DNA of 64,000 nucleotides from a virus (lineage: Duplodnaviria; Heunggongvirae; Uroviricota; Caudoviricetes), in the IMG/VR virus record IMGVR_UViG_3300050190_000017. The stretch is one strand, 5' to 3'. Within the stretch, counting starts at the first letter, position 1, and each line of letters begins with the position of its first letter. The translations under genes were made by a program, and so were the position numbers. The notes under the pieces were generated by a model, which was not told the DNA's origin, searched no databases, and saw nothing but the letters and a program-made list of their open reading frames with translations. This document shows positions 2,608-52,488 of this stretch, piece by piece.

Positions 2608-2615
2608 TGTAAATA
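2608..2615 (+). promoter_or_regulatory. TGTAAATA box (copy 1 of 16)
   Basis: Intergenic, upstream of gene 2713. Confidence 0.4.
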
Positions 2616-2712
2616 TACAATGTAGTAATTTGTATTTCACAAACATAAAAAGTGTGATACAATTAACCTGTAGTCTTAACCCTCCCAAACTGAAACAAAG
2701 GAAACACATAAA

Positions 2713-3189
2713 ATGGCAACCGCACAAATCTCCCAAGCCAAACAAATCGCAACCGCATTGAAGGCCGCAGCAAAGATGATCGCAACTGGCGACCGCACGA
2801 TTGCACGATTGACGACGCAACTGGAGCGCGCACAAGCTCGCATTGAAGCCGCAAAGGAAGCGAAGGCAGCAGGGAAGGTCGCTAAGGCACCTCGCACGCA
2901 GAAAGCAAAGGCCGGCGCTACCGCCAAGGCAGTGAAGGCAACGAAGGGTCCGAAAGCGAAGGCCGCAGCAGCCGACGAAGCACCGGCCAAAACGAAGAAG
3001 GTTGTAGGCAAGGTCGCAAAGGCTGGTAAGGTTGTGGCGAAAGCAGCCAAGGCTGGCAAGGCACCGGTCAAGGCAGCAACCGCCAAAGGCCCGAAAGCAA
3101 AACCGGCTGCTAAGGCAGGTAAAGCGAAGGTTGCAGCAAAGCCGGTGAAGAAGGCAAAGGCTGGCAATGACGACTTCCTGATTCCGTAA
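2713..3189 (+). CDS. histone H1-like Lys/Ala-rich DNA-binding protein
   Basis: Translation is dominated by AKAK/KAAK repeats, as in bacterial H1-like/AlgP-type proteins. N-terminal helical segment. Confidence 0.5.
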   Translation: MATAQISQAKQIATALKAAAKMIATGDRTIARLTTQLERAQARIEAAKEAKAAGKVAKAPRTQKAKAGATAKAVKATKGPKAKAAAADEAPAKTKKVVGKVAKAGKVVAKAAKAGKAPVKAATAKGPKAKPAAKAGKAKVAAKPVKKAKAGNDDFLIP

Positions 3190-3225
3190 TCCAGAAGTAA
3201 CAGTCAAATCGTAGTTTAGTTAAAA

Positions 3226-3278
3226 GGGAACAGCGTATTCTAGTCTCACTAGTTTGCTCTGTTCCCTTTTGTCGTTTT
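3226..3278 (+). terminator. rho-independent terminator
   Basis: GGGAACAG...CTGTTCCC stem followed by TTTTGTCGTTTT. Confidence 0.5.
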
Positions 3279-3357
3279 GCGCTCTAGAAGTTAGAAGTTA
3301 GAGGCTTGTTCTCGGATAATCCTCTACCTTTTATCAAGTTACCAAGTAGGAGCAGTC

Positions 3358-4380
3358 ATGAAGAACCCCATGCGTATCGTAGACTCAAACTTTGACCGGC
3401 TTCAAGCACGCAAGGGCACGGCCACCAAGAACAACTCACAGATGGAAAAGATTACGGCCATGTTGCAGATCGGGAGTAAGGCTGGCCCGGACGACGCACA
3501 GATTCTGCTCAAGGCCGAGAATCGTGTTACTGCATTGAAGGAGTTACGCATATCGTTAGCTAAGGCGACCACTGCAGTCTCCCGTCTGTATGTTGTGGAG
3601 AAGCCACAGCAATTGAAGAAGCTGACCGCTGCATTGAAAACGATTCAGACTATTGCACAAAGCAAGCCACCCGTCGGAGTGTCGAAGCATCTGAAGGCAG
3701 CAATGAATGAACTCACGAGTTTGCGTGAGGGTGTGTACGTAGGAGCCGCAACATCGCAGAAGGCGCTGTCCATCGTCAGTTGCACGGATGCCCTGACGCA
3801 CGTAGATGAATTGATTGTGAAGGCCACCGCAAGCTATGAAGCGAAGAAGGTAACGGCAGGGCCAGACGATGCACTGTGGACTGAGGAAATCACAAAGGTT
3901 ATCCAGCAGACTGCAGAGGAGTCAAAGAAGCTCGCGTCACTGAAAGACAAAGACTTCGTGGTGTCACGTATGCCTGTTATCCCTCTCGCCAAAGCATCGA
4001 ACAAAGCAGCAACCGGATTCCTCTCTGTGCAAGCGCTGCAACGTGCGGGATTGAAAGCAGAGTCCTTGGGTGGTTATCCCGTGTTGCACAATCAATTGGT
4101 GATCGGTATTAACCCCAAGGCAGTTGGGCTAACCGAAAAGCAGAAGGCTGAGGGCAAATCGATCCCGCGTGAGAAGTGGTTGGAAGTCGCAGACTCGATT
4201 CGCAAACTTGTGCAAAAGCAAACCAAGCAGAAGTATCAATTCGTGGATGAGCGCGCATACGGCGCAGCCGGTGGTGCATGGTTCTGGTTGATGCCTGAAC
4301 GTGAACTCGATCTATTTGCCTCGGCGTTCCCGGGCAAGGCAGTGACATTACTTAACTGGGGATTTGCGAGTGGCGGTTAA
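3358..4380 (+). CDS. hypothetical protein (340 aa)
   Basis: ORF track; AGGAG SD upstream. Confidence 0.6.
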   Translation: MKNPMRIVDSNFDRLQARKGTATKNNSQMEKITAMLQIGSKAGPDDAQILLKAENRVTALKELRISLAKATTAVSRLYVVEKPQQLKKLTAALKTIQTIAQSKPPVGVSKHLKAAMNELTSLREGVYVGAATSQKALSIVSCTDALTHVDELIVKATASYEAKKVTAGPDDALWTEEITKVIQQTAEESKKLASLKDKDFVVSRMPVIPLAKASNKAATGFLSVQALQRAGLKAESLGGYPVLHNQLVIGINPKAVGLTEKQKAEGKSIPREKWLEVADSIRKLVQKQTKQKYQFVDERAYGAAGGAWFWLMPERELDLFASAFPGKAVTLLNWGFASGG

Positions 4381-4381
4381 C

Positions 4382-4687
4382 ATGGAATTTACTAAGAAAG
4401 AACCCACGCCAGAAGAGGCATTATCCCGGTATCTCCAGCAGTATGGATACCCGTACACCTGTCGTATCTTCGGTAGGTGCAAGAATGAATTCAGGGCAGG
4501 CTTTCTAGCAGGGTATAGCTGTGCGTCTAAGCTTAGTTCCTCGGGTCTAGTAGAGCTGTACGCAGAATACGCAGACTCGCTTACAAAGAAACTAGAAGCA
4601 CCATTCGCTAACAGACAAGGATTTGAATCAGGTATCTTGTACGGTGCAATTCGCCACTACAAACTTACTATGGTTAGTAGACTCTAG
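4382..4687 (+). CDS. hypothetical protein (101 aa)
   Basis: ORF track frame 4364-4687. The ATG at 4382 directly follows the upstream stop. Confidence 0.5.
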   Translation: MEFTKKEPTPEEALSRYLQQYGYPYTCRIFGRCKNEFRAGFLAGYSCASKLSSSGLVELYAEYADSLTKKLEAPFANRQGFESGILYGAIRHYKLTMVSRL

Positions 4688-4695
4688 GAGTAGTA

Positions 4696-5196
4696 ATGCT
4701 AGTTAATCAATTGCTTGTGTTGCCGGATGAAGGGACACTGAATTACCTCCGGCAGATATTCAGCGCGTGTCCCTTCGAGCTTGATCTTAGTCAGGCGTAC
4801 GTGGAAGTCAACAGTTCGCTAGGTAACATGCAGGCCGAAGCTTCAAACGTGTACATTGCAGAAGCTGGTTCGATGAACATCTGGTATGACTCGTCTACCC
4901 AGTCATCGTCCCTACTACTTCCCTTAGTTAGTTCGGAATTGAGTAAGCGGTGTCAGGTGGTACGGGAGAATGCCCCGTCACTGTTCTACGGTGATTACTA
5001 CCACCCCTTCTTAGTATTGAAGCGATACATGCCACCGAAGGCTAAACACTTCCGAGGCTTTCTTAACAGTGTGTCGGATGTGTTGTACGCCAATCGAATG
5101 CCTCTAGTGTTCGACGCTGAGTTCGTAATGTCTCAGAATTTTGAATACGTACCCGACACTGATTTCTACGTGTCCCAAATGGCAACCCTTGTTTAA
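4696..5196 (+). CDS. hypothetical protein (166 aa)
   Basis: ORF track; GGAG upstream. Confidence 0.55.
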   Translation: MLVNQLLVLPDEGTLNYLRQIFSACPFELDLSQAYVEVNSSLGNMQAEASNVYIAEAGSMNIWYDSSTQSSSLLLPLVSSELSKRCQVVRENAPSLFYGDYYHPFLVLKRYMPPKAKHFRGFLNSVSDVLYANRMPLVFDAEFVMSQNFEYVPDTDFYVSQMATLV

Positions 5197-5204
5197 GTTA
5201 AGGA

Positions 5205-5474
5205 ATGAACATGAATAAAGAGTGGGCAACCCCTTGGGGTTCGGGTAAGGTCGAACAGCATGAAGCCAAGAAGGACGCCAAGCCTATCGTGTATCTGTTC
5301 GTAAACGGTGCAGCTATCGGCGTCAGCGCGTACCCTAGCGATCACGAAGATGCAGATAAGTACACGATGGAGGTTCAAGAATTCTTGGGTGGTCGCAAAA
5401 CCACCGCTGACATCTCAATCACGGTTCTCCGCAACATCTTGGCGCAAGCCGGTGTGCATGTAGTAATGGAATGA
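5205..5474 (+). CDS. hypothetical protein (89 aa)
   Basis: ORF track; AAGGA SD. Confidence 0.55.
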   Translation: MNMNKEWATPWGSGKVEQHEAKKDAKPIVYLFVNGAAIGVSAYPSDHEDADKYTMEVQEFLGGRKTTADISITVLRNILAQAGVHVVME

Positions 5475-5517
5475 TACACAGCGGCACTGAAACCGTTTTC
5501 TAGCTGGACAATTCCAA

Positions 5518-5973
5518 ATGGAAAGTATCACATTGCCGTATTGCTGGGTCTGCGAGAGACGCTTCGTAGATTCAGTTCCTCCTGGCCCCTGCCTCCGAGA
5601 GGAACACCACATAATCCCGAGGAAGGCGGGTGGTACAGATGGGCCGTTAGTGAGCCTGTGCGACTCCCATCATGCGAAGCTGCATAAGATTGCAAATCGG
5701 CTTTCTTCAAAGAAGCCGTACTTTGATTTACTAGCAGGAGAGTCTAGTGAGCACACTAAGAAGTTGCTCTGGTTAGCGACCCGCGTGTTCAATGCCTTCG
5801 AGTTAGTAAAGGGAGATCCGAATAAGACTACCTCGGTGCTCCTAACACTAGACCGAGAACTACAAAGCAAGCTGGATTACCTGAAAAAGATCTACCCACA
5901 ACTTAAGAGCAGAGAAGCGATTGTGAGCTTCGCTATCGATACCCTCTACAACAAACACTGTTCCCAGGAGTAA
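5518..5973 (+). CDS. HNH homing endonuclease
   Basis: CWVCERRF...EEHHIIPRKAGG...LCDSHHAKLH matches the Cys/His HNH motif. Confidence 0.7.
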   Translation: MESITLPYCWVCERRFVDSVPPGPCLREEHHIIPRKAGGTDGPLVSLCDSHHAKLHKIANRLSSKKPYFDLLAGESSEHTKKLLWLATRVFNAFELVKGDPNKTTSVLLTLDRELQSKLDYLKKIYPQLKSREAIVSFAIDTLYNKHCSQE

Positions 5974-5977
5974 CACA

Positions 5978-6304
5978 ATGACTGAAATCAATAACACCCA
6001 CCAGCCGAAACTCAACGACGTAGTTGCCATTCACCTTACTAATGGTAGTACCGTACTGGGGCGCCTAGTAGTAAACGATATGCTGTATGCAACCCTCAAG
6101 AAGCCAATGTCATTGATTGTTCAAGGCACGGGTCAACAAGGTCAACTGTCAATCTCGATGATGCCTTACCTAACGCTCGGTGTATTCCCTGCACTAGACG
6201 AGATCGACTTTGACACGGAGATGTACATTCTCATGCGTCCGGTACCCAAGCAGCTGGAAGACATCTACCTCGAGAACACCTCAGGCATTGCAATCGTTCG
6301 CTAA
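5978..6304 (+). CDS. hypothetical protein (108 aa)
   Basis: ORF track. Confidence 0.55.
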   Translation: MTEINNTHQPKLNDVVAIHLTNGSTVLGRLVVNDMLYATLKKPMSLIVQGTGQQGQLSISMMPYLTLGVFPALDEIDFDTEMYILMRPVPKQLEDIYLENTSGIAIVR

Positions 6305-6319
6305 CCACTAGGGGCCTGA

Positions 6320-6601
6320 ATGACGATCATTGATACGACCGAACCCAAGAGTAGTTGGAATTATCGCGTAGTGGAGAGCACTGCCTTAGTTGGGGGCGAG
6401 AAAGAGACTTGGAGAGCAGTACACGAAGTCTCTTACTATAATGATGTTCCACAGTCGTACAGTACGCGCCCGGCCACTATTGTGTGGGACGTAGATGCAG
6501 GGGATGACGGTGCTAAAAGAGTTCTGCATAGAATGCTCGAAGCACTAGACAAGCCGATCCTGCTCGCAAAGGATTTTACAGATACCAGGGAGGTCTTATG
6601 A
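6320..6601 (+). CDS. hypothetical protein (93 aa)
   Basis: ORF track. Confidence 0.55.
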   Translation: MTIIDTTEPKSSWNYRVVESTALVGGEKETWRAVHEVSYYNDVPQSYSTRPATIVWDVDAGDDGAKRVLHRMLEALDKPILLAKDFTDTREVL

Positions 6602-6762
6602 TTATCAGTACTGAAGAAGAGTACAGGCAGGCCACAGCTAAGGGCAACGCTATTGTGGACACGGACGAGGATCCCTGGGTGAATCCTGAGTTCATCGAGA
6701 TCACTGATGCTATGATGGCCTGGGAAGCTATTCACTACCCAGAAGGCGAGATCACTGAATAA
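6598..6762 (+). CDS. hypothetical small protein (54 aa)
   Basis: The ATG overlaps the upstream stop (ATGA). Open to the TAA at 6760-6762. Below the track length cutoff. Confidence 0.4.
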   Translation: MIISTEEEYRQATAKGNAIVDTDEDPWVNPEFIEITDAMMAWEAIHYPEGEITE

Positions 6763-6792
6763 TTCTGTGCAATACCCCGAAAAGTGGGGGTA

Positions 6793-6822
6793 TTGACATG
6801 ACCCCCATTTTCATGCGATAAT
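6793..6822 (+). promoter_or_regulatory. sigma70-like promoter TTGACA-N18-GATAAT
   Basis: Read directly. Preceded by a CCCC/GGGG hairpin and followed by AAGGTGT as in the other early box. Confidence 0.5.
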
Positions 6823-6923
6823 AAGGTGTCGGCACAACGGAGAACCTAGCGTGAACGGACTCACGCTACTGACGGAATAACGAAATTTCCATCAACTAGA
6901 ATTATAGAAAACCCTATCCCAAT

Positions 6924-7601
6924 ATGTTGAAAAAGAACGTGCTCGGCACAGCTAGTGCTAAATCTTTGGATGAGGCGTTTCGCTGTGGCGAGTGCCTCCA
7001 TTTCCGTCATCATGCTCATTCAACCCGAGAGGCAGTTTGTTCAGCGGAAGGAGTACGAGCAGTTGGTTTAGCACCAAAGTGCTTCACACCTGACATCACG
7101 GCATTGGCAACGAACACCGATCAGTTTGTTCAAATCGCAGCACTGTTCCAAAGCACGACGCACAAGCAGCGTCGAATTCTCTTAGGCATGTTTCGTGGTC
7201 AGAAGAAAAAGAAGTTTCCGATTGGCACCAAGTTGTTCTTCCGTGTTGGTCGCGATTACATCTCGAATTACTTGGCAGCGTATTCAGCAGGGTATACCAG
7301 CAGTGGTGAGCTGATGTTGATTGGTTCACCCAGTATGAAAACCAGGGGATCACGGTTCACATCGTTTCTCACTTCCAGTGAAGACCTTATGGTGTTCTCG
7401 GAGTGGAAGAAAAAGAAAGCAGAGCTGACTGAGGCTGGATTGATATTCGATCCACAGAACAAGATTATCAAGAAGGCATCGGTCGTCGATAACTATGAAC
7501 CACCGAGCATCGACTCAGTCCCCTCTGACTGGTACAACAAAGAAGAAAAGAAGACGCGGCGCAAGACTGATCCGCTTGAGTTCACTATCAAGGGGAGGTA
7601 A
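6924..7601 (+). CDS. hypothetical protein (225 aa; Cys/His-rich N-terminus, Lys-rich C-terminus)
   Basis: ORF track. Confidence 0.6.
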   Translation: MLKKNVLGTASAKSLDEAFRCGECLHFRHHAHSTREAVCSAEGVRAVGLAPKCFTPDITALATNTDQFVQIAALFQSTTHKQRRILLGMFRGQKKKKFPIGTKLFFRVGRDYISNYLAAYSAGYTSSGELMLIGSPSMKTRGSRFTSFLTSSEDLMVFSEWKKKKAELTEAGLIFDPQNKIIKKASVVDNYEPPSIDSVPSDWYNKEEKKTRRKTDPLEFTIKGR

Positions 7602-7604
7602 GCC

Positions 7605-8564
7605 ATGACTTCACTGTCGAAACTTTGGAACCTAGATCAGAAGACTGTGCTCAAGGTAGGCGGTGCAGTATTCGCCTACCTGTTTCACCGTATCACTCAG
7701 ATCCAACTCGTTCACTTCATCGACGACCGTGAGATTTCAGATAAGGTGTTGCACTCCATTCGCAAGGATGGTTACGTTCTCAAGAACTGCAAGACGTATG
7801 CGTGGGCTGTGCATAAAGCACGGCACTACAACACAGAGGCACCGAAGTATAAAGCGTATGGCATCGCCTCCTCCGATTATCGTTTGCTATCGAAGCTGAA
7901 CCTGAAGCACCTGAGTATCAAGTTTGACGCGTGGACCCCTGACGACCTGGACGCAATCGTTGGTGACACGTTGAACTGCCAGGCAATGTCTCAGTACATT
8001 GGTAAATACATTTCAAAGTGTTTGCTGTTCCTGATTCGGTCCTATGGCATTGAACGGTCGCTTCTGGAAACAGAGATGACCACGTGGGCGATGCGAGCCA
8101 TCTATGTAACGTATCCTCGTTTTGAATCGCTGCTTCACGTAACCAACGTAGCGAAGTCTGCGATTCACAACTGCGGGCAGAATCAGATTCAGTATTACAC
8201 GGCACCGTCTCGCAATAGATTGCAAAAGACGGCAGAGGGATTGTTTGAAGCTCGCCATGTTGCATACGACACACTGGCACACGTAGCGGTTGACGATGAA
8301 CCGCAGCGTGACCTCAAAGACAAGTTGGAGACCTTGGTATCCCTGGCAGAGAAGAAGGGTATGCGTGAGGACGTTCAACGATTTTTAATGTGTTGTGCAG
8401 GGCACCACGACGAAGGGTTTTCGGATTACTTAGAGGTCGATAACTCAAGTTTGATAGAGGAGATTTCCTATCCACGATACTTACGCAAGGCTTCAAAATA
8501 CTTTAGCTTTACTGAGACGCAAGTTCAAAACCTGTTCGAGAAGCTCCGCACAGAGTTAGTATAA
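7605..8564 (+). CDS. hypothetical protein (319 aa)
   Basis: ORF track; GGGAGG SD. Confidence 0.6.
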   Translation: MTSLSKLWNLDQKTVLKVGGAVFAYLFHRITQIQLVHFIDDREISDKVLHSIRKDGYVLKNCKTYAWAVHKARHYNTEAPKYKAYGIASSDYRLLSKLNLKHLSIKFDAWTPDDLDAIVGDTLNCQAMSQYIGKYISKCLLFLIRSYGIERSLLETEMTTWAMRAIYVTYPRFESLLHVTNVAKSAIHNCGQNQIQYYTAPSRNRLQKTAEGLFEARHVAYDTLAHVAVDDEPQRDLKDKLETLVSLAEKKGMREDVQRFLMCCAGHHDEGFSDYLEVDNSSLIEEISYPRYLRKASKYFSFTETQVQNLFEKLRTELV

Positions 8565-8622
8565 AAAAACAGAACTGTAGGTCATCGGTACAAGCCCTTC
8601 CCAGTAACACAGGAGGATCGCT

Positions 8623-8940
8623 ATGTATGCCGCTATTGAGGGTGTTGATATTGTTAGTGTATTGAGAGAACGACAAGCACTGTTCGCTGCCCAGGTTGAT
8701 CTCACACTTGAGCAGTACCTTAAGATTGTACGTGCTTGTAATACCGATGAAGCAATAACAGTTCTGGAACTCTTGCGGGTTTCAACATTCAAGTCTCAAA
8801 GTAGAGCGCACTGTGCGCGTAAGGTTAGGGAGTGGGTGGGCAACGAGAGCGCTATAGGAAAGCCGTTAAACATCTGGGAGTTTGAAAGATGTAGGCCGAC
8901 CTGGAAGATCCGCTATTCACTCCCTACTGTTCATTACTGA
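8623..8940 (+). CDS. hypothetical protein (105 aa)
   Basis: ORF track; AGGAGG SD. Confidence 0.55.
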   Translation: MYAAIEGVDIVSVLRERQALFAAQVDLTLEQYLKIVRACNTDEAITVLELLRVSTFKSQSRAHCARKVREWVGNESAIGKPLNIWEFERCRPTWKIRYSLPTVHY

Positions 8941-8975
8941 GGAGCTTCGGCTCTTCGGATTCTGAGGAGTCGAAA

Positions 8976-9287
8976 ATGGAGCAGCATGTATACTATGTGG
9001 TGATGGTAACGCCAGTACGCACCCAGCACTTCACGTTGAGGTTTGACTCGAACCCAACGGTGAAGGAAGTGCTGTATGAATTATCTACTCAACCGCACAC
9101 CCCTGAGACACTTGCACTCACTGTAAATAGTATGCGGATGCTTCATGCAAGTGGGCAGGAGCACGAGTTATTCAACGAGAGTTCAACCTTCGAGTATAAG
9201 ATTGAGAAGTCGTGGCTGCGTATTGTGTGCCCTCTCCACGTATGTCCAATCACCGCAAACTATGAACAAACCAAAGTATCGAATTAA
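8976..9287 (+). CDS. hypothetical protein (103 aa)
   Basis: ORF track; GAGGAG SD. Confidence 0.55.
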   Translation: MEQHVYYVVMVTPVRTQHFTLRFDSNPTVKEVLYELSTQPHTPETLALTVNSMRMLHASGQEHELFNESSTFEYKIEKSWLRIVCPLHVCPITANYEQTKVSN

Positions 9288-9483
9288 GCGTAGAGCAGAC
9301 GGGTATCATGTAGTACAGCGACGCGAGTTCTTCTTCTGGTGTACCTGCAGTAAACCGTTCTTCTATAGGGGTGACGCTGAAGATCACGTCAAACACCAAG
9401 TAGCTAGGGATCAGCAAGCAAAGATAAAGTGGGATACCCGCGGCATAGTCGCCACCTACGATGAAAACGGAAACCTACTGTAA
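9262..9483 (+). CDS. hypothetical protein (73 aa)
   Basis: Internal ATG of track ORF 9145-9483. The stop lies inside a CTGTAAATAA box. Confidence 0.45.
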   Translation: MNKPKYRIKRRADGYHVVQRREFFFWCTCSKPFFYRGDAEDHVKHQVARDQQAKIKWDTRGIVATYDENGNLL

Positions 9484-9486
9484 ATA
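9479..9486 (+). promoter_or_regulatory. TGTAAATA box
   Basis: Overlaps the stop codon of gene 9262. Confidence 0.4.
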
Positions 9487-9518
9487 ACCTGTATGCGTAT
9501 TACCAACAAGGACGTAAG

Positions 9519-9809
9519 ATGAGCAATGTTGTCGAGTTCCCGAAGGCTTGTGTATCGTGTGATGCAGAGAGTGCCGACAGTGTATGTAAAGAAGCCGACG
9601 GTTGTCCTACTGAACGTGCCGTGCTGCAGCGATTCTGGCGTGCGCATCAAGCTCTGTTAGCCGGATGGAAGTTGGTACCTCTGGAGCCTACAGACAAGAT
9701 GGTTATCGCAGGTGTTCACTGTGAACAGGCGGAACATACTGGACGATACAGTAGTATGGAAGCTGCTTACCGTGCCATACTTGCAGCTGCACCTGATTAC
9801 CCCCTGTAA
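9519..9809 (+). CDS. hypothetical protein (96 aa, Cys-rich)
   Basis: ORF track. Confidence 0.55.
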   Translation: MSNVVEFPKACVSCDAESADSVCKEADGCPTERAVLQRFWRAHQALLAGWKLVPLEPTDKMVIAGVHCEQAEHTGRYSSMEAAYRAILAAAPDYPL

Positions 9810-9812
9810 ATA
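9805..9812 (+). promoter_or_regulatory. TGTAAATA box (CTGTAAATAAAGA)
   Basis: Overlaps the stop of gene 9519. Confidence 0.4.
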
Positions 9813-9818
9813 AAGAAC

Positions 9819-10220
9819 ATGACGTACACTGAAAAGACACTCACGCAAGGCGAGCACGTTGTCTACACCGCATCACTTAGTTTGTGGAATTCCTTCTGGA
9901 TGATCGTCCTCGGCATCATCCTTATTCCAGTGTTTGGTATCGGCTTGATCTTGCTATTGCTGGTGTTCTGCAACTTTGCCACAACTGAGTTGGTGATTAC
10001 AAACAAGCGGTTGGTGTCGAAGAAAGGTTTTATCAGTCGTAGAGTGATCGAGATCCCGTTGTCAAAAGTTGAAACGATTCGCGTGGATCAAACCTTCATG
10101 GGTCGCATCTTGAATTACGGTTCGGTGGTTGTGGCAGGTGCTGGTAATCCCCAAGAGCCGTTCCTGGGTATCTCGAAGCCCCTGGAGTTCCGTAAAAAGT
10201 TTTCTGAGGCTCAACTGTAA
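9819..10220 (+). CDS. membrane protein with bacterial PH-like (YdbT/DUF304-like) domain
   Basis: Two adjacent TM helices, then LVITNKRLV...IEIPLSKVETIRVDQ, typical of bPH_2 proteins. Confidence 0.45.
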   Translation: MTYTEKTLTQGEHVVYTASLSLWNSFWMIVLGIILIPVFGIGLILLLLVFCNFATTELVITNKRLVSKKGFISRRVIEIPLSKVETIRVDQTFMGRILNYGSVVVAGAGNPQEPFLGISKPLEFRKKFSEAQL

Positions 10221-10223
10221 ATA
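10216..10223 (+). promoter_or_regulatory. TGTAAATA box (CTGTAAATAAAGAGTA)
   Basis: Overlaps the stop of gene 9819. Confidence 0.4.
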
Positions 10224-10269
10224 AAGAGTAGATTCCTACTTTTGCTAGACCTTCAAATAAGGAATAAGG

Positions 10270-10371
10270 ATGCGTGATTCTGATGGTGGTAGCTGGCTAG
10301 AGGCTATTCTATTCGTAGCAATGGTTGGCATAGTGCTGTTCGACATAGTATCGGGTATACACTGTAACTAA
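10270..10371 (+). CDS. hypothetical small membrane peptide (33 aa)
   Basis: AGGA SD before the ATG. One hydrophobic helix. The stop lies inside the CTGTAACTAAAGAG box variant. Confidence 0.3.
   Translation: MRDSDGGSWLEAILFVAMVGIVLFDIVSGIHCN
10363..10370 (+). promoter_or_regulatory. TGTAACTA variant box
   Basis: Same flanks (CTGTAA.TAAAGAG) as neighbouring copies. Confidence 0.3.
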
Positions 10372-10424
10372 AGAGTGCAAGGTTTATCAATGAGCAGAGA
10401 TGCTCAATTACTAGGAGTAGGAAA

Positions 10425-10685
10425 ATGCTTACATTGAAGTTAATGTCAGAACAAGATATGCCTGACGACGATCCAGCCAAGGATTTCACCCTCGTCCAGA
10501 TCACCGATGACGAAGTATTGCAGTTCCTTCGTACAGGTGAGTCTGAAACATATCGTGAGTACACCTGCAAGGTAGTGGCACTTATCAAACGCCGTGATGG
10601 TTCCGAGATGCCCTATCCACTAGTAGGTAACGCCTACGTTATGAACGAGAATGGCAAGACCATTGCTAGTCGCTGTTCGTACTAG
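10425..10685 (+). CDS. hypothetical protein (86 aa)
   Basis: ORF track; GGAG SD. Confidence 0.55.
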   Translation: MLTLKLMSEQDMPDDDPAKDFTLVQITDDEVLQFLRTGESETYREYTCKVVALIKRRDGSEMPYPLVGNAYVMNENGKTIASRCSY

Positions 10686-10693
10686 TGTAAATA
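10686..10693 (+). promoter_or_regulatory. TGTAAATA box (GTGTAAATAAAGAGTA)
   Basis: Lies between the stop of gene 10425 and the tRNA. Confidence 0.4.
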
Positions 10694-10706
10694 AAGAGTA
10701 TGAAGT

Positions 10707-10781
10707 AGGGGAGTAGCCAAGTGGTACGGCACTAGTCTTTGACACTAGCACGCGAAGGTTCGATCCCTTCCTCCCCTGCCA
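10707..10781 (+). tRNA. tRNA-Gln: tRNA-Gln (anticodon UUG)
   Basis: Cloverleaf folded by hand. Acceptor AGGGGAG/CTCCCCT, anticodon stem CTAGT/ACTAG with loop CTTTGAC, T arm GAAGG-TTCGATC-CCTTC, discriminator G and encoded CCA. Confidence 0.75.
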
Positions 10782-10795
10782 AAGTTTTTCACTGC

Positions 10796-10803
10796 TGTAA
10801 ATA
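10796..10803 (+). promoter_or_regulatory. TGTAAATA box
   Basis: Immediately 3' of the tRNA. Confidence 0.4.
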
Positions 10804-10953
10804 ACAAGTAACGAATTCCAACAAATAGAAAAGTAATGATTAAGATCTTTTGACTCTATAGCTTCACTGATTAGCAGCACCCGTAGTATAGATCGCAGTA
10901 AGCTGTAGAGAAAACAAACCTTCATTCAAAATCCAATTTGGAATATCACACAC

Positions 10954-11697
10954 ATGAACAAGATCATTATCGCCGCAGCTATTTCCGCAATGTTCGCAGC
11001 TTCGGCTTTTGCAGGTAGCCCTTCGACTATTCCTGCTGGTGTCTCGGCCAGTACTGGTGGTGGCGCAGGAGTTGCTAACACGATTAGCGGTAGCTTTAGT
11101 TCTTTCAATGGTGGATCGAGCGAGTCTCAAGCTTTCAATAGCGAAAGTTCTGCAGTTACCTCGACGGCAGGTATCAGCAAGAGCGGCGTAGCAACCACCT
11201 CCGGTACTATTGCTAATAGCGGTAGCGCATACGGCTGGAACCTCAGCTCGGGCGCAGGCACGGGTAGCGCAGTCTCGACTGGTTCGGCTGACGCCAACAC
11301 CAGTGAGAATACCACAGTAAACGGCGGTAGCAGCTCCGGTAATATTACGCTGGTCAGTGGCAATAACATTGTTGCTGGTAGAAACCAAGGTGGGGCTGTT
11401 GGTTCAGCTGAGGGTGGTAGCTACACCACGAGCCTCTCGTCCACGAATAGCTCTAGCGTAAACAAGACCACCGGTTCGACGTCCACCACGGATATTACGT
11501 CGACGCTGACGGGCGACGCCTGGGGCGCAACGGCTACCACCCAAGGTTCGGGATTGACGGTTGGTAGTACAGCTCTTAGCGATCCGAGCACCATCACTGT
11601 TAACACGAATGGTGGTTTCAACTTCGGCGGTGCTATCACGACGGGTGAAGGCGCAGGCGCAACGCTTATCAACAACCCAGTCAGCAACAACCCGTAA
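10954..11697 (+). CDS. secreted Ser/Gly/Thr-rich protein with signal peptide
   Basis: MNKIIIAAAISAMFAASAFA signal-like N-terminus, then low-complexity S/G/T-rich sequence. The minus-strand ORF 10864-11388 is judged a shadow. Confidence 0.55.
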   Translation: MNKIIIAAAISAMFAASAFAGSPSTIPAGVSASTGGGAGVANTISGSFSSFNGGSSESQAFNSESSAVTSTAGISKSGVATTSGTIANSGSAYGWNLSSGAGTGSAVSTGSADANTSENTTVNGGSSSGNITLVSGNNIVAGRNQGGAVGSAEGGSYTTSLSSTNSSSVNKTTGSTSTTDITSTLTGDAWGATATTQGSGLTVGSTALSDPSTITVNTNGGFNFGGAITTGEGAGATLINNPVSNNP

Positions 11698-11734
11698 TCA
11701 ACAAAGCTTCACACGTAACATCTAGCTAGACTGA

Positions 11735-11771
11735 GGTGGATAGGGATTAAGTTCCCTATCCACCTCTTTTC
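11735..11771 (+). terminator. rho-independent terminator
   Basis: 12-bp stem GGTGGATAGGGA/TCCCTATCCACC, loop TTAAGT, then TCTTTT. Confidence 0.7.
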
Positions 11772-11788
11772 ACATTTGCCCTCCTTAA

Positions 11789-12499
11789 TTGGACGAAAAC
11801 ATGAATAAGAAGCTCCTAGTAGCAACTGTACTTTCTCTATCGTCAGCTGTAGCCTTTGCACAGACTGCAAGCACGGCATCGAATGCAAGTACGCAGAGTG
11901 CAGCACAAGGTGGTTCCCTGTTGTTCGCCCCTGTTTCTGATAGTACCGTTCGCTACGCAACCTCCTCGGCATTCGCTCCCTCGCTCACCTCTTCAAATGA
12001 TACGTGTATGGGTAGTTCGTCGATGGGTGCGACCGGTATGTCGTTCGGTGTAGCCCTTGGTTCGACCTGGACAGATTCCAATTGCACGATGTTGAAGAAC
12101 GCGCGTGAAGAATGGAACATGGGCGAGCACTCCGCAGCAATGGCCCTTCTCTGTACCAATGACGACATTCGCTATTCGATCTCTGTGTCGGGTGGTGTTA
12201 TTGATCGTCGCAAAGATGGGGCCACCATTCGCCGTGGTTGCCCAATGACGAAGGCCGAGTGGGTTGCAGCCGGTCGTCCTCTAATTGATCCTGATACCGG
12301 CCAAGCAGTTGCTCCTGGCTCGGTCGTTACTCCGGCACCCGTAGCAGCAGCCGTTGTTCAACGCCCTCTCGCTTTGTTGGACTCGAAGGGTGTGCTGATG
12401 ACGGTAACGCCGCAGATGAAGACCGCCGAAGAAATTCAAGCACACGCCGCTATCATCAAAGCCAATGCGGAAATGCGTGCGCAGTCTGTTACCAAGTAA
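11789..12499 (+). CDS. secreted protein with signal peptide (236 aa)
   Basis: MNKKLLVATVLSLSSAVAFAQT signal peptide; several Cys. Confidence 0.6.
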   Translation: MDENMNKKLLVATVLSLSSAVAFAQTASTASNASTQSAAQGGSLLFAPVSDSTVRYATSSAFAPSLTSSNDTCMGSSSMGATGMSFGVALGSTWTDSNCTMLKNAREEWNMGEHSAAMALLCTNDDIRYSISVSGGVIDRRKDGATIRRGCPMTKAEWVAAGRPLIDPDTGQAVAPGSVVTPAPVAAAVVQRPLALLDSKGVLMTVTPQMKTAEEIQAHAAIIKANAEMRAQSVTK

Positions 12500-12528
12500 T
12501 TTTGAATAAACTCATAAAGGAACTAATC

Positions 12529-12702
12529 ATGTCTGAAAATAATAGTAATGAAGACCCGAGCGGAGGTAATGAAGACGCAAAGTGGCTGGACCGGGCTGAT
12601 GAAGCGCGTGCAGAAGGTCACGCAACGCAGGATCAGGTTGATGCACTGGTTGCCAAGCTTAGTGTAGAGGCCGATGCATCTAAGGACTCAACTACGGAGT
12701 AG
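12529..12702 (+). CDS. hypothetical acidic protein (57 aa)
   Basis: ATG with AAAGG SD. The track ORF begins at an upstream TTG at 12502. Confidence 0.45.
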   Translation: MSENNSNEDPSGGNEDAKWLDRADEARAEGHATQDQVDALVAKLSVEADASKDSTTE

Positions 12703-12711
12703 GGAGCAACG

Positions 12712-13119
12712 ATGAAGCAACTCTTACTAGTAGCACTGCTTGGTGTAGCCTTCAGTGCGCAAGCACAAGAACTCACCAATGGTGGAATGCCTCCAGGCGA
12801 TCCACCATCCATCCTGGTAGCTAACGTGCCGATGGGTTCTGGTGTGCCGAGCCTTGGACAGACTATCGGTTACTCCTCAGCAACTCCTGTTGCCGATGGC
12901 CTGTATCACGTCCCTGGTTATCTTCCACTGCAATCTAGTGCAGGCACGATCTGGCCTCGTGTTGTAGACGTTAGCTGCGATCCGATTAGAGGCGTGTGGT
13001 ACTGCAATGGTTATCACGTCGATGGTGTGCTTGAACGTGGTGAGGACATTTATGTGCGTCCAGTCTTCCGTCAATCAATTACATTAACACTTCCGCTGAC
13101 CACTCCTATTCAGCACTAA
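12712..13119 (+). CDS. secreted protein with signal peptide (135 aa)
   Basis: MKQLLLVALLGVAFSAQAQ signal peptide. Confidence 0.6.
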   Translation: MKQLLLVALLGVAFSAQAQELTNGGMPPGDPPSILVANVPMGSGVPSLGQTIGYSSATPVADGLYHVPGYLPLQSSAGTIWPRVVDVSCDPIRGVWYCNGYHVDGVLERGEDIYVRPVFRQSITLTLPLTTPIQH

Positions 13120-13127
13120 TGTAAATA
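13120..13127 (+). promoter_or_regulatory. TGTAAATA box
   Basis: Overlaps or abuts the stop of gene 12712 and precedes a hairpin. Confidence 0.4.
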
Positions 13128-13129
13128 GA

Positions 13130-13160
13130 GGGTAGTCAATCCTGACTATCCCTTTCCTCT
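13130..13160 (+). terminator. putative terminator hairpin
   Basis: GGGTAGTCA/TGACTA(T)CCC stem with one bulge, then a T-rich tract. Confidence 0.4.
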
Positions 13161-13176
13161 TCTAGGACTAGCAACT

Positions 13177-13440
13177 ATGACCGATTACACCTACAAAGCA
13201 ACCAACGCAATCGAAGAATCCCTTCTCCTGTCCACAGCACCGCCCACCAACGAAGAGATTGCAGACCTCCAAATCAAAGATTGGGCAGACTCTCTTACAC
13301 AAATCACTGCAGCTGTTCGCACTCTGGAACACGCACTGCCTCTCGCAAGTTCTCAGGGTATCGAACAGTCCTTCAAGCGGTTGTCGTCAAACATGCATAG
13401 CCTTCGTCTGTTCTTGTTGGTACGGGGATTCAATGTCTAA
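13177..13440 (+). CDS. hypothetical protein (87 aa)
   Basis: ORF track. Confidence 0.5.
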   Translation: MTDYTYKATNAIEESLLLSTAPPTNEEIADLQIKDWADSLTQITAAVRTLEHALPLASSQGIEQSFKRLSSNMHSLRLFLLVRGFNV

Positions 13441-13639
13441 GGCGGTCCACAAAGAATTGAAGGTTAAGCGGTACTCTGTAGTCCACGCAGAAGACACAGG
13501 GCAAGTCGATCTAGTGGTAGCTGACTCAGGTGACTTCGTTAAAGTTACTGACGTTAAAGCAGCACTTCGCGCCATGCTGAGAGCACACAGGCTAACCCCT
13601 GAAACTGCAACACGCATTATCACAAACTTGGCTTTGTAA
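13433..13639 (+). CDS. hypothetical protein (68 aa)
   Basis: Internal ATG of track ORF 13259-13639, overlapping the upstream stop (ATGTCTAA). Confidence 0.45.
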   Translation: MSKAVHKELKVKRYSVVHAEDTGQVDLVVADSGDFVKVTDVKAALRAMLRAHRLTPETATRIITNLAL

Positions 13640-13679
13640 TCCAGCCACCCGGCTGAGTAATAACTTCTGGAGAATCCTA

Positions 13680-14195
13680 GTGTACAACTCAGCCGGTAAA
13701 CGATACCCAGATGAGCAGTCAGATCTCCGAGAGATATTCGCCCGTATCAAAGATAGCAACCAGGAGTCGGGCGTTCTATACTACGAGGTTGTGAATGCTC
13801 CCCATCTCCAGCCCCTAATTAACGCACTTACCCACGTGGGCTTAACAGCAGCCCCTGTGCAAGATACCCGCACACTAATCCTTGTGCATAACGATATGGG
13901 TTCCACACTGTTTCCGGTCTTGCGTATTGAGTGGCATCCGGAGCAAGTTAGGCACTGGTGGCCGAATCAAAAGTTCGAGGGCGTACCCGAGTCTGTTCTT
14001 CCGTTACTAACAAAATTTCGTATAGGTGTGGTATTCGCATTCTTCACCTGTATATTTGCATCACTGCTGTGTGCCCTAGTTATGAACAGGCATTCAGTAG
14101 CGTCACACGATTTAGCAATAGGCGCCATTGGCTCCCTCTTCCTTCTGTGTCTCTTAGGACTTCTTGAGCATGAATCAGCAAACCAATCAAATTAG
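13680..14195 (+). CDS. membrane protein (171 aa; C-terminal TM helices)
   Basis: ORF track; GTG start; GGAG SD. Confidence 0.5.
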   Translation: MYNSAGKRYPDEQSDLREIFARIKDSNQESGVLYYEVVNAPHLQPLINALTHVGLTAAPVQDTRTLILVHNDMGSTLFPVLRIEWHPEQVRHWWPNQKFEGVPESVLPLLTKFRIGVVFAFFTCIFASLLCALVMNRHSVASHDLAIGAIGSLFLLCLLGLLEHESANQSN

Positions 14196-14472
14196 TACCT
14201 TCAACTGTGTAGTGAAGAAGGGCGCAGAAGAATTACCCGCAGAAGGGGTTGTGCTTAAGCAGGAGGATACCTTCGACGTTCAGGTGTTCCTCAACTCTCA
14301 GTTCTACACGTTCAGCATTATCAGGCAGCAAGACCACCAGTACATGCTTCGCCTAGTTCGTATACATGATCGTACCGGAACACTCATATCACTAAAGACG
14401 CTGCTCCTGACAGACCCCAAAGTGGAGATGTTGTTTGAGCGCGTTCTCACCACGTTAGTAAATCAGGAATAA
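14170..14472 (+). CDS. hypothetical protein (100 aa)
   Basis: ORF track 14164-14472; first ATG at 14170. Confidence 0.5.
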   Translation: MNQQTNQISTFNCVVKKGAEELPAEGVVLKQEDTFDVQVFLNSQFYTFSIIRQQDHQYMLRLVRIHDRTGTLISLKTLLLTDPKVEMLFERVLTTLVNQE

Positions 14473-14492
14473 TTTTTAAGTAAGGAAACAGT

Positions 14493-15238: not shown

Positions 15239-15286
15239 AAGGTGTAGAGGCACCCGATAGAAAACCAAAGGAAAAGGAAGAACAAA

Positions 15287-41960: not shown

Positions 41961-41968
41961 TGTAAATA
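41961..41968 (+). promoter_or_regulatory. TGTAAATA box
   Basis: After the stop of 41389, upstream of 42010. Confidence 0.4.
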
Positions 41969-48622: not shown

Positions 48623-48630
48623 TGTAAATA
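48623..48630 (+). promoter_or_regulatory. TGTAAATA box
   Basis: Upstream of the holin-like gene. Confidence 0.4.
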
Positions 48631-50554: not shown

Positions 50555-50808
50555 TGCAGATACAACTTAATGCGGCCTCTCGACTACTAGCTGCTACAAA
50601 GGTACAGCCTGGAATGAAAGTAGCAGAAGCCCGAAACCCCGACGAGTATATTGGAACTGTACTCGATATTAAAGTAGCGCGTAAAGAAGAAGTCGCTATG
50701 GTAGACGTAGGCGGAGGTGTGCGATCTATGTACCGCTTACCAGAACTTGTAGAGTACAAGGGAAAGAAGACACGGCCTGCTGGTATTACGTTCCCTGGCC
50801 TAACGTAA
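50554..50808 (+). CDS. KLNAAxRLLA-tagged small protein (84 aa)
   Basis: MQIQLNAASRLLAATK. Confidence 0.55.
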   Translation: MQIQLNAASRLLAATKVQPGMKVAEARNPDEYIGTVLDIKVARKEEVAMVDVGGGVRSMYRLPELVEYKGKKTRPAGITFPGLT

Positions 50809-50824
50809 TAAATAAGGATTCACA

Positions 50825-51295
50825 ATGGAAAATGAACAGCAACTCCAAGAGCTTATAGCTCTGTTTCTTAAAGTTAATCCCGATCCATCTGATGATCAAT
50901 TCCATGCACTAGCGGGCGCCTGCGGAGTAGATCATGCTACGCTCGAAGCAATCAGCTACTCCATGCTTGCTGAGTCAGAAGAAGTGCTGGCCGATGCAGA
51001 AGTAGACGTAGAAAGTATCGGTGGCGGGCAAGGTGATGTAGGTCTCAGCGATGCCCAACAAGTACTGGACGGTGACTATGATCCTAACGTTACTCAAACT
51101 GATGACCTGCTGCTTAATGACGGAGCTCCTGCTTCTGATACATCAACTCAACGTCTGCAGGACACGACGTTGAACGACGGAGTGAGTGTCGGTGATACAG
51201 GTTCGGGTATTGCTAGTCAGGAGATGCTGTATAGCGATGGATTAGCTCCTCTGAAGTTGGGTGCATCAGCTCGTTTGCTTGCCACTGCTAAGTAA
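50825..51295 (+). CDS. acidic protein ending in a C-terminal tag-like LKLGASARLLATAK
   Basis: ORF track; tag-like motif at the C-terminus. Confidence 0.55.
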   Translation: MENEQQLQELIALFLKVNPDPSDDQFHALAGACGVDHATLEAISYSMLAESEEVLADAEVDVESIGGGQGDVGLSDAQQVLDGDYDPNVTQTDDLLLNDGAPASDTSTQRLQDTTLNDGVSVGDTGSGIASQEMLYSDGLAPLKLGASARLLATAK

Positions 51296-51297
51296 TC

Positions 51298-52020
51298 ATG
51301 GCTACTACCGATACGCCCTTCCTCAGCAACTTGGGCGTCCCTCCTCTTGTACAGGCGAGGAACCCCACTCCTGAAACATTTCCATCTGCGCTTAACCTGA
51401 ATAACAAGAGTGTATGGGGCACCGCTGTTGCAGAAACTCCACCGACTGCTAGTGTGCCTGAGACGTGGGCATTGTGCTTGAAGCGTTACGTTGAGTTGTG
51501 CGAAATCCAAGACCTCTTTCCCTTCCAGACACTCCACCAGTCTCGTAACGATCAGATCTCGGACTTCTTGAAGGAAGCTCGAATGATGGTTGTGAAGTAC
51601 ATCAATCGATCTGGTCTGTTCGATGAAGTGAAGTTGACCAAGAGCCACCGCTCAGTGCATGTAACGCACGATGGATTCAATATCGTAGTGTACGCCAAGG
51701 CTACGATCACTGATCCCTCGTTCGAGCAGTGGTTGCAGAAAATGCCGTATCCCCACTTCAACAGCGTTCGTCGCCCAGACGGTAAGTGGGTTAAGCCCCT
51801 CGGCAACGGCGTCACTATGTTTGTTATCAACGGTGAGCACGGCGGCTACTCACCTACACGCTGGCACATCGGATATGAGATCGAATGCTCAATGTTCCCT
51901 GATGTTCCGACGTCCGGTACACCCTCACAAGCAGAGTTGGAGAAGTTTGTTTTGGACGTACTTTGGATGCCAGTACTTCGCACCCACCGCCCTTTGAAAG
52001 TATTACATCGTTTGATTTAA
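51298..52020 (+). CDS. hypothetical protein (240 aa)
   Basis: ORF track. Confidence 0.55.
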   Translation: MATTDTPFLSNLGVPPLVQARNPTPETFPSALNLNNKSVWGTAVAETPPTASVPETWALCLKRYVELCEIQDLFPFQTLHQSRNDQISDFLKEARMMVVKYINRSGLFDEVKLTKSHRSVHVTHDGFNIVVYAKATITDPSFEQWLQKMPYPHFNSVRRPDGKWVKPLGNGVTMFVINGEHGGYSPTRWHIGYEIECSMFPDVPTSGTPSQAELEKFVLDVLWMPVLRTHRPLKVLHRLI

Positions 52021-52069
52021 CACTCAGTAGCAACCTAGGCTCATCGAGCTTCAACTTAGGAGAATCACT

Positions 52070-52471
52070 ATGTTTAGTTTCCTCCCCTCCATTACTTCCG
52101 CTCTGTCGGCAATCCCAGTATTCGTTGTTGGTGCGGTTGCCGGTATACTTATCTACCGCTTTGTCTTGGTTAAGAACCCCAGCCTACTCAACACGTTGGT
52201 CACTAAGGCAAAGACGGACATCTCGTCCGTCGAAGCTTTGATTGTTCGGAAAAAGGCAATCCTGCCTGTTGCCGTGGTTCCGGTTGTTGTAGCTGTGAAA
52301 GTTGCTCCTGTAGCAGTTGAACCTGTAGCTGTTGCTCAACCGGTAGCCGCACCCGTAGCTGTTGCTCCAGTTGTAGTTGCTCCAGTAGCACCTGTCGTTG
52401 CCCCTGTAGCTGTTGCTCCGGCCGTTGTTGCACCGGTAGCTACTCAACCTGTGGCAGCTCCTGCTGCCTGA
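52070..52471 (+). CDS. membrane-anchored protein with (P)VAVAPV repeat tail
   Basis: N-terminal TM helix, then VAP-rich tandem repeats. AGGAGAATCACTATG. Confidence 0.55.
   Translation: MFSFLPSITSALSAIPVFVVGAVAGILIYRFVLVKNPSLLNTLVTKAKTDISSVEALIVRKKAILPVAVVPVVVAVKVAPVAVEPVAVAQPVAAPVAVAPVVVAPVAPVVAPVAVAPAVVAPVATQPVAAPAA
52264..52470 (+). repeat. imperfect tandem 9/12-nt repeats encoding (P)VAVAPV units
   Basis: Read directly. Confidence 0.6.
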
Positions 52472-52480
52472 TTCTACTCC

Positions 52481-52488
52481 TGTAAATA
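52481..52488 (+). promoter_or_regulatory. TGTAAATA box
   Basis: After the stop of 52070, before a terminator. Confidence 0.4.

Follow-up and report, generated by a model that had tools for sequence, protein, structure and literature searches.

A strand-specific octamer at gene boundaries

IMG/VR virus record IMGVR_UViG_3300050190_000017 provides a 64,000 nt stretch of Caudoviricetes DNA (the window), in which all plausible genes lie on the + strand and 93% of the sequence is coding by a simple gene call; the gene boundaries given for it below come from this call, which is our own, crude and made on the + strand. The octamer TGTAAATA, the subject of this report, occurs in the window 17 times in exact form on the + strand and not once on the - strand, and a count of its reverse complement on the + strand accordingly gave zero copies. 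In 100 dinucleotide-preserving shuffles of the window, counted on both strands together, the word has on average 2.19 copies and at most 6, and 0 of the 100 reach 17. In an order-3 Markov model it is by far the most over-represented octamer of the window, with 17 copies against 0.59 expected. The first-pass annotation, made by a reader who saw only the letters and a list of open reading frames (ORFs), had placed all copies on the + strand, put the chance level at about one copy per strand and listed fifteen of the exact sites together with a variant, TGTAACTA, at 10363. The strand, the chance level, the fifteen sites and the variant are all borne out and most coordinates stand; two exact copies, at 9122 and 31330, had been overlooked, and the sites given as 27702 and 33521 are at 27703 and 33531.

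The word is essentially invariant, as its near-matches are not enriched: there are 25 non-exact one-mismatch matches on both strands, against about 44 in the shuffles. This deficit, counted over the whole window, hints at selection against near-cognate sites. A logo of the flanks was built; C, said to precede most copies, is the base 5' of the word in 9 of 17, and the A or G said to follow it is the base 3' in 13 of 17. The late promoter word of phage T4, TATAAATA, has only 2 copies in the window (26282 and 47050), both within called genes.

Sixteen of the 17 copies touch the approximately 8% of the window that is intergenic or stop codon (binomial P about 3e-16). Overlap with the TAA stop of the upstream gene, claimed for many copies, holds in the strict sense for four of them (9479, 9805, 10216 and 19745), where the stop lies inside the box, and seven further boxes begin 0–10 nt after a stop codon. 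The gap from the box to the next start codon is usually 22–46 nt.

A possible start-site signature downstream of the box

When the 17 copies are aligned, T is found at the 6th base after the box in 14 (P 1.2e-6, or 3e-4 after correction for all flank positions and bases) and a purine at the 7th base in all 17, while the five bases between the box and the conserved T are variable and purine-rich. Upstream there is merely a weak A-C preference directly before the word; the flank logo of the 17 copies has no -35-like element and no notable information content from -30 to -3 relative to the box. Bacterial RNA polymerase typically starts at such a pyrimidine-purine pair, and +1 typically lies 7 nt past the last base of the -10 hexamer. 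If the purine at the 7th base is +1, the box would span -14 to -7 and its TAAATA -12 to -7. In having T-A at hexamer positions 1–2 and a predicted purine start about 7 nt after the hexamer, the box resembles promoters that are read by alternative factors of the sigma-70 family, whose domain 2 recognises the -10. The predicted 5' leaders are 16–53 nt long and contain a Shine-Dalgarno sequence for most genes; that of the tRNA-Gln gene would be 7 nt.

A scan of positions 1–20000 for the sigma-70 consensus (TTGACA, 16–18 nt spacer, TATAAT) picked up none of the boxes in that stretch, and found other sites there, at 659–688, 2636–2663 and 6793–6822 (TTGACA-18-GATAAT). A sigma-70 -10 hexamer beginning at the conserved T-A after the box was considered and rejected, its sixth position not being conserved. 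The box itself is A+T-rich and unpaired and is not an intrinsic terminator, and among the Rfam covariance models run against the window only tRNA-Gln reaches its gathering score.

The box in phiRSL1 and its relatives

To judge by its proteins, the window comes from a jumbo myophage akin to Ralstonia phage phiRSL1. Its 1525-amino-acid SNF2 protein is 48% identical over the full length to ORF129 of phiRSL1 (231 kb) and shares 41–45% identity with proteins from Burkholderia phages BcepSaruman, BcepSauron and BCSR5 and from Achromobacter phage Motura. The window also agrees with phiRSL1, roughly from 10 to 80 kb, in which genes it has and in their order; these comprise an NAD-dependent ligase, NadR-like NMNAT/NUDIX, NAMPT, topoisomerase IB, homospermidine synthase, head-tail connector, SNF2, prohead protease and a virion structural protein. 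The kinship with phiRSL1 is visible at the protein level only, and Megablast with 12 kb of the window against the phage collection gave no DNA-level match. Searched with the SNF2 protein, viral contigs gave distant helicases only and no close relatives, and an exact-protein search for gene 57281–57688 gave no match. The same phage is present in the Logan assemblies of run SRR35930972, where a search with the NAMPT protein gave a 13.5-kb contig.

The genes of phiRSL1 are arranged in blocks on both strands, and so allow a test of box orientation that is impossible in the window. GTAAATA occurs 35 times in phiRSL1, against 2.2 copies expected on both strands, and every one of them lies in the sense direction of the local genes, across six orientation switches that include blocks of 1.6 and 5 kb. 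A skewed octamer of the Chi or KOPS type does not describe the word: in the window 16 of 17 copies are intergenic or stop-overlapping, and such a reading fails because the orientation of the phiRSL1 box tracks each local gene block, including the short ones of 1.6–5 kb. About 26 of the 35 phiRSL1 copies are at gene boundaries, often containing a TAA stop; among the copies inside genes the majority, with C before the G, may be chance occurrences. The phiRSL1 consensus is G-C-a-GTAAATA-g, followed by a G-rich stretch. Two phiRSL1 copies, at 189652 and 229166, are followed by 430–440 nt with no annotated gene and mark candidate small genes or non-coding RNAs.

GTAAATA is also on the sense strand in BcepSaruman (L006), BCSR5 (L008), Motura and three metagenomic relatives with 50–55% GC that were reached via their sigma genes (L019, L020 and L021). 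The family-wide form of the box is N-GTAAATA. Several of the sites are orthologous. The box upstream of SNF2 is found at 52481 in the window, 70784 in phiRSL1, 19908 in BcepSaruman and 19857 in BCSR5, the one before the dCMP-deaminase block at 41961 in the window, 61112 in phiRSL1 and 13009 in BcepSaruman, and the one after NAMPT at 27703 in the window and 55563 in phiRSL1. Among the relatives, a box precedes thymidylate synthase in phiRSL1 (164264) and L019 (6948) and SSB in phiRSL1 (159351), L019 (11278), L020 (11123) and L021 (11290). In a MAFFT alignment of the SNF2 upstream regions the conserved islands are few, namely the box, the T-run of a terminator and the start codon; the boxes of phiRSL1, BcepSaruman and BCSR5 are aligned, and that of the window is out of register because its spacing is longer. 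TGTAAATA is a real, highly non-random and family-conserved signal.

The individual sites

All sites are on the + strand. Some 35 nt separate the first box (2608–2615) from a preceding terminator-like hairpin and its T-run; the box abuts a TACAAT and is 97 nt upstream of ATG 2713. The second (9122–9129) may be the single chance copy expected on the + strand, since it is possibly within an alternative ORF (8976–9287) and is one of three copies with no downstream T. The next three each hold the TAA stop of the upstream gene. The box at 9479–9486 ends gene 9145–9483 and has its predicted start 26 nt upstream of ATG 9519; that at 9805–9812 ends gene 9519–9809 and has a predicted +1 that is the A of ATG 9819; and that at 10216–10223 ends gene 9819–10220 and is followed by AAGAGTA. 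The mRNA of gene 9819, which encodes a membrane-flanked-domain protein (PHROG 3707) and has no Shine-Dalgarno sequence, may be leaderless. The one-mismatch variant TGTAACTA (10363–10370) is followed by AAGAGT, as are the boxes at 10216 and 10686. It coincides in part with the stop of what may be a small ORF: the 200-nt gap in the gene call at 10224–10424 probably contains a reading frame of about 30 codons closed by the variant's own TAA (TGTAACTAA).

The tRNA-Gln gene (10707–10781) is flanked by boxes. The upstream one (10686–10693) directly follows a TAG stop at 10685, ends 13 nt before the gene and has its predicted +1 7 nt upstream of it; the downstream one (10796–10803) begins 15 nt past the tRNA 3' end and follows a T-run. 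The box at 13120–13127 directly follows a TAA stop at 13119, and its predicted +1 (13134) is in the 5' arm of a terminator-like hairpin (13130–13151). The next two are close to sigma-70-like elements: that at 15220–15227 has, 5 nt downstream, the TACAAT -10 of a sigma-70-like early promoter (GTGTTACAATAAGGTGTAG), and that at 19745–19752, which holds the TAA stop of gene 19561–19749, is 5 nt upstream of an extended -10 (TGATATAAT) that is followed by ATG 19786.

The box at 25017–25024 begins 1 nt after a TGA stop and is upstream of a nicotinamide mononucleotide adenylyltransferase/NUDIX (NadR-like) gene at 25071. That at 27703–27710 lies 16 nt after a strong intrinsic terminator, a 12-bp stem and T-run at 27657–27687, behind the NAMPT gene. 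The box at 31330–31337 is within the last 16 nt of gene 31010–31345, 22 nt upstream of ATG 31360, and that at 33531–33538 begins 1 nt after a TAA stop, 30 nt upstream of ATG 33569 of a nucleotide pyrophosphohydrolase-like gene. The last three are at 41961–41968, 2 nt after a stop and upstream of gene 42010; at 48623–48630, 4 nt after the stop of the head-tail connector gene and upstream of a membrane-protein gene (48674); and at 52481–52488, 9 nt after a stop and followed by an intrinsic terminator (52520–52552 and T-run), a CAATTT box and the SNF2 helicase gene (52636).

Terminators next to the box

Terminator-like hairpins lie before (27657–27687) or after (13130–13151, 52520–52552) the box at a minority of the sites. 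Boxes directly after strong terminators or T-runs are found in the window at 2608, 10796 and 27703, and there are similar cases in BcepSaruman, Motura and BCSR5. The reverse order, box then hairpin, is seen also at 70784 and 183967 of phiRSL1. Upstream of SNF2 the order is box, terminator, second box and gene in both the window (52481–52640) and phiRSL1 (70784–70925), and a hairpin with T-run after the SNF2-upstream box is clear in BcepSaruman (19908–19995) and possible in BCSR5 (19857–19992). The intervening sequence is not conserved across these phages. At 13120 the predicted start is inside the 5' arm of the hairpin, and transcripts begun there could therefore escape a terminator that stops upstream transcripts. 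Such an escape is doubtful at phiRSL1 70784, where the start would fall at the very beginning of the hairpin arm. At 52481 and in BcepSaruman the terminator is wholly downstream, and the box would there give RNAs of roughly 65–70 nt, or an attenuator; taken over the SNF2 upstream regions of all four phages, a short terminated RNA would be about 40–70 nt long.

Genes behind the box and other putative promoter classes

The genes behind phiRSL1 boxes encode DnaB, the clamp, SSB, thymidylate synthase, dCMP deaminase, several helicases and a recombination endonuclease; GTAAATA is absent from the main structural blocks of phiRSL1, which have AATTTGA instead. In the window the boxes precede the NadR-like gene, the tRNA and small genes, and only those at 41961, 48623 and 52481 are in the virion region. 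With DNA-metabolism and auxiliary genes behind TGTAAATA and another box at the structural genes, a middle class is more likely than a late one, the temporal class being judged from gene function only. The first-pass annotation had left the choice between late and middle open; its middle alternative fits better, and its late alternative loses ground because the genes that follow are mostly of the DNA-metabolism and auxiliary kind.

This other box, C-AATTTGA-T, is likewise sense-only in phiRSL1 (24 sense copies against 1 antisense) and is located 15–70 nt before start codons, where it precedes structural blocks, holin and tail-fibre genes (for example at 75599, 104043, 110536 and 122685). Its equivalent in the window, intergenic and likewise confined to the sense strand, is a CAATTT box at 42385, 43670, 49078, 52577, 57216 (GCAATTTGATGG) and 62580, and the genes behind these are the virion structural protein gene at 62637, SNF2, the gene at 57281 that comes after SNF2, and three to which no function is assigned (42419, 43710 and 49108). 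By its position the CAATTT/AATTTGA box is probably a separate promoter class, and perhaps the late one. AATTTGA was also considered as a -35 element and rejected, as its distance to start codons goes down to 15–30 nt. In two divergent intergenic regions of phiRSL1 outward-facing copies of C-AATTTGA-T form an inverted repeat.

Sigma-70-like promoters, presumably an early class, are present in the window at 659–690, 2636–2663, 6793–6835, 15228–15250 and 19753–19763. They have a shared context, GTGTTACAAT or GATAAT and then AAGGTGTAG, with a conserved ...TACAATAAGGTGTAG. The octamer is 5 nt upstream of a -10 hexamer of this sort at 15220 and 19745 and abuts TACAAT at 2608, and these three may be dual-class promoters. 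Altogether the motifs suggest three promoter classes: sigma-70-like, GTAAATA and CAATTT/AATTTGA.

A putative reader of the box

ORF224 of phiRSL1 is annotated as a sigma factor. Its match to Pfam Sigma70_r2 is weak (E 4e-4, short of the curated cut-off), it has a PHROG of its own (17569), and its family has more than 240 homologues in public data, many of them on contigs of 200–260 kb; all relatives examined encode one. The protein is 324 amino acids long and has the fold of sigma-70 regions 1.2–2. A phmmer search for a second sigma paralogue in phiRSL1 and the window found none. A sigma factor like T4 gp55, for which the first-pass annotation had advised a search, did not turn up in phiRSL1 or the window: phmmer with gp55 against all of their ORFs had no hit (best E 1.8). 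Aligned to gp55 by hhalign, the ORF224 family scored a probability of 0.1%, so that both comparisons were negative. The sigma factor of the relatives has a sigma-70-like fold.

Iyer et al. (2021) place phiRSL1 among the jumbo phages that have no RNA polymerase and do have sigma factors (PMC7824862), and a 2026 review says the same of jumbo phages lacking RNA polymerase in general (PMC13282480). Orthologues of gp33 are also reported by Iyer et al. for this group of jumbo phages in general (PMC7824862), and ORF157 of phiRSL1 is a beta-clamp-like protein. The ORF224-family sigma factor would be the most likely reader of the box. A sigma factor with regions 1.2 and 2 and no evident need for a -35 element would suit a promoter whose parts are an extended -10-like contact, a -10 hexamer and a discriminator. 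The sigma operon of phiRSL1 is itself preceded by AATTTGA (161561), and the sigma gene of L021 is directly preceded by AGTAAATA, 32 nt before its ATG (9961–10001), a difference that complicates the assignment of TGTAAATA to a middle class. The order of the two promoter classes may differ among relatives, or the sigma factor may be autoregulated.

Interpretation of the box

Sequence comparison makes it quite likely that TGTAAATA is the core box of a phage-specific promoter class, located in the -10 region and with no -35 partner. In favour of a promoter are the boxes that come after terminators, where no upstream RNA should remain, the start signature at a fixed distance, the G-rich discriminator-like stretch in phiRSL1, the box before a tRNA gene, and the lack of any Rfam match other than tRNA. 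The first-pass annotation had already proposed a phage-specific -10 element, and the confinement of the word to intergenic DNA, its co-orientation with genes in phiRSL1, the orthologous sites, the lack of a -35 element, the fixed pyrimidine-purine pair, the copies after terminators and before a tRNA gene, and the sigma factor of the relatives agree with that proposal. Host core RNA polymerase with a phage-encoded specificity factor would bind the box, with TAAATA acting as the -10 hexamer at about -12 to -7. The G before it, in combination with T-14 in this phage or, in phiRSL1, with the G-C two bases further upstream, would act as an extended -10-like contact, and transcription is predicted to begin at the conserved purine, the 7th base after the box. 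This class would probably serve middle (DNA-metabolism and auxiliary) genes, a tRNA gene and some genes of the virion region; most structural genes would be behind CAATTT/AATTTGA, and the presumed early genes behind the sigma-70-like promoters.

Five observations weigh against this interpretation. No sigma factor is encoded in the window itself by phmmer search. The T/purine pair at a fixed distance is weak in phiRSL1. A box followed by a terminator-like hairpin ahead of the next gene, as at 52481 and in part at 13120, is odd for a simple promoter. The presence of 11 of the 17 boxes within 10 nt of an upstream stop fits a 3'-end or intercistronic RNA signal too. Finally, the assignment of GTAAATA rather than AATTTGA to the putative reader is complicated by the boxes upstream of the sigma genes.

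The box might also be read at two levels. It would be the promoter core of a sigma-promoter pair not characterised before, in which the ORF224-family factor, sigma-70-like in fold and unlike gp55 in sequence, recognises a TAAATA core with no -35 element; where a terminator follows, as at SNF2, it would further be the origin of short terminated leader RNAs or of an attenuator that controls read-through. In a radical version GUAAAUA would be an RNA signal for a sequence-specific RNA-binding protein or nuclease of the phage. We think such a double reading improbable. Also improbable is an RNA-level signal pure and simple, in which GUAAAUA would separate or stabilise the cistrons of polycistronic transcripts as an intercistronic processing, 3'-end or stability signal, and its reader would be a host RNase or a sequence-specific RNA-binding protein or nuclease of the phage. 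The 11 of 17 boxes at or just past stop codons, the restriction to the sense strand in every genome examined, and the boxes that flank a tRNA gene in need of processing would all suit such a signal, as would those that lie between a stop and a terminator hairpin (13120 and 52481 in the window, 70784 and 183967 in phiRSL1, 19908 in BcepSaruman). The copies at 2608 and 27703 and those of relatives, however, are just downstream of strong intrinsic terminators, where little RNA is expected; the T/purine pair and the G-rich stretch of phiRSL1 have no obvious role in cleavage and match features of start sites and discriminators; the distance from stop to box varies from -4 to +73 nt with no fixed reading-frame phase; and the box has no Rfam match and no conserved secondary-structure context. 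The RNA-processing alternative of the first-pass annotation is thus weakened, chiefly by the copies directly after strong terminators, and keeps a small probability.

Two further readings involve sigma-70-type promoters. A regulator site, that is an asymmetric site for an activator, repressor or anti-terminator of phage or host that binds DNA near weak sigma-70-type promoters, we consider very unlikely. The strict invariance of the word is operator-like, and at 2608 (TACAAT), 15220 (TACAAT) and 19745 (TATAAT) the box is 0–5 nt upstream of a good sigma-70-type -10, but the other 14 copies have no sigma-70-like -10 or -35 at a consistent distance, the would-be last T of such a hexamer is not conserved, and gaps to start codons of as little as 6–30 nt leave no room for a separate downstream core promoter. 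Least probable of all is that the box is an unusual extended -10 of a host sigma-70 early class, read by the housekeeping holoenzyme with no phage factor. A T-A-rich hexamer directly follows a TG, non-structural genes come after the box and sigma-70-like hexamers co-occur at three sites, as such a class might have them. The final T is a critical position of the sigma-70 -10 hexamer, however, and TAAATA does not have it; for an extended -10 the TG would have to stand one base further off, and a consensus scan misses the boxes. The window moreover has good sigma-70-like promoters of its own (for example 6793–6822, and TACAAT near 688 and 2663), host-type promoters are normally degenerate whereas the box is invariant with no enrichment of near-matches, and phages whose hosts differ widely in GC content retain one and the same box.

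A peptide shared by window proteins

Fourteen proteins of the window, among them homospermidine synthase and a NUDIX-like protein, share the peptide (M)K-L-N-A-A-x-R-L-L-A, which in 11 of them is at or near the N-terminus. They are encoded by the genes at 36321, 37349, 38281, 39337, 40756, 41389, 43710, 45149, 45425, 45751, 46562, 50554, 50825 and 58106. The pattern is absent from the frames of the other strand and, in its strict form, from phiRSL1. One possible role of the peptide is as a signal for targeting or for protease cleavage, such as one that directs packaging into the capsid.

Comparison with known promoter systems

The searchable literature contains no description of TGTAAATA or GTAAATA, nor of the transcription programme of phiRSL1-like jumbo phages; the original phiRSL1 paper (Yamada et al. 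2010) is outside that search, and an earlier report of the box is possible. Phage-encoded sigma factors that redirect the host core polymerase, and so give temporal classes, are familiar from Bacillus phage SPO1 (gp28, gp33/34) and coliphage phiEco32 (gp36). The promoters that such factors read have other sequences and mostly two elements, -35 and -10, and the SPO1 and phiEco32 sigma factors are not demonstrably related to the ORF224 family. The bacterial extended -10 promoter (TGn-TATAAT) is similar to the box in having TG upstream of a T-A-rich hexamer, in needing no -35 element and in a start about 7 nt further on. It differs in that here no spacer base separates the TG from the hexamer, the last base of the hexamer is A, the box is invariant and a consensus scan misses the sites.

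The nearest likeness is to the late promoters of T4, which are read through gp55, gp33 and the gp45 sliding clamp and whose activation is coupled to replication. These have a tightly conserved 8-bp box, TATAAATA, near -10 (-13 to -6) and no -35 element, with variants known at the first two positions (PMC2988020), and boxes of this type have been reported in genome papers on ViI-like phages and rV5. A single invariant 8-bp -10 box, the lack of a -35 element and an identical TAAATA core are common to both, and in T4, too, late promoters often sit hard against the end of the preceding gene or overlap it and number tens of copies per genome (PMC2988020). The one-base resemblance to the T4 late consensus pointed out in the first-pass annotation is to that extent real, in core and in architecture. 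The second position, however, is A in T4 and G here, in 17 of 17 window copies and 35 of 35 in phiRSL1, and it is invariant across the family members examined. The T4 box is at -13 to -6, whereas the position predicted here is -14 to -7, and the stretch after the box is A+T-rich in T4 but purine- or G-rich here. T4 late boxes precede virion and lysis genes, and the present ones mostly DNA-metabolism and auxiliary genes; gp55 has 185 amino acids and no detectable similarity to the 324-residue ORF224-family sigma factor. The box would work like a T4-type promoter that has a -10 only, but we do not place it in the T4 late family: position 2 differs, no gp55 homologue was detected in phiRSL1 or the window, and by their functions the genes that follow are mostly not late ones.

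The late box of Aeromonas phage Aeh1 has (a/g)C at -13/-12 in place of TA (PMC2988020). Such variants are similar to the present box, which has (T/A)G, in that the first two positions change between lineages and TAAATA is kept; they belong, however, to true T4 relatives with gp55, gp33 and gp45, whereas the phiRSL1-like phages are a separate lineage, with no gp55 detected in phiRSL1.

The phiRSL1-like jumbo phages are a large lineage known mostly from metagenomes, and the box offers a handle on their transcription programme: it predicts transcription units, is a testable partner for a divergent sigma factor and, in annotation, offers an inexpensive way to spot gene boundaries and small genes or RNAs that lack annotation. 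If the ORF224-type sigma factor reads the TAAATA core as gp55 does in T4, the comparison could help to tell whether large phages came to recognise -35-less, "TATA-like" promoters by ancient descent or by convergence.

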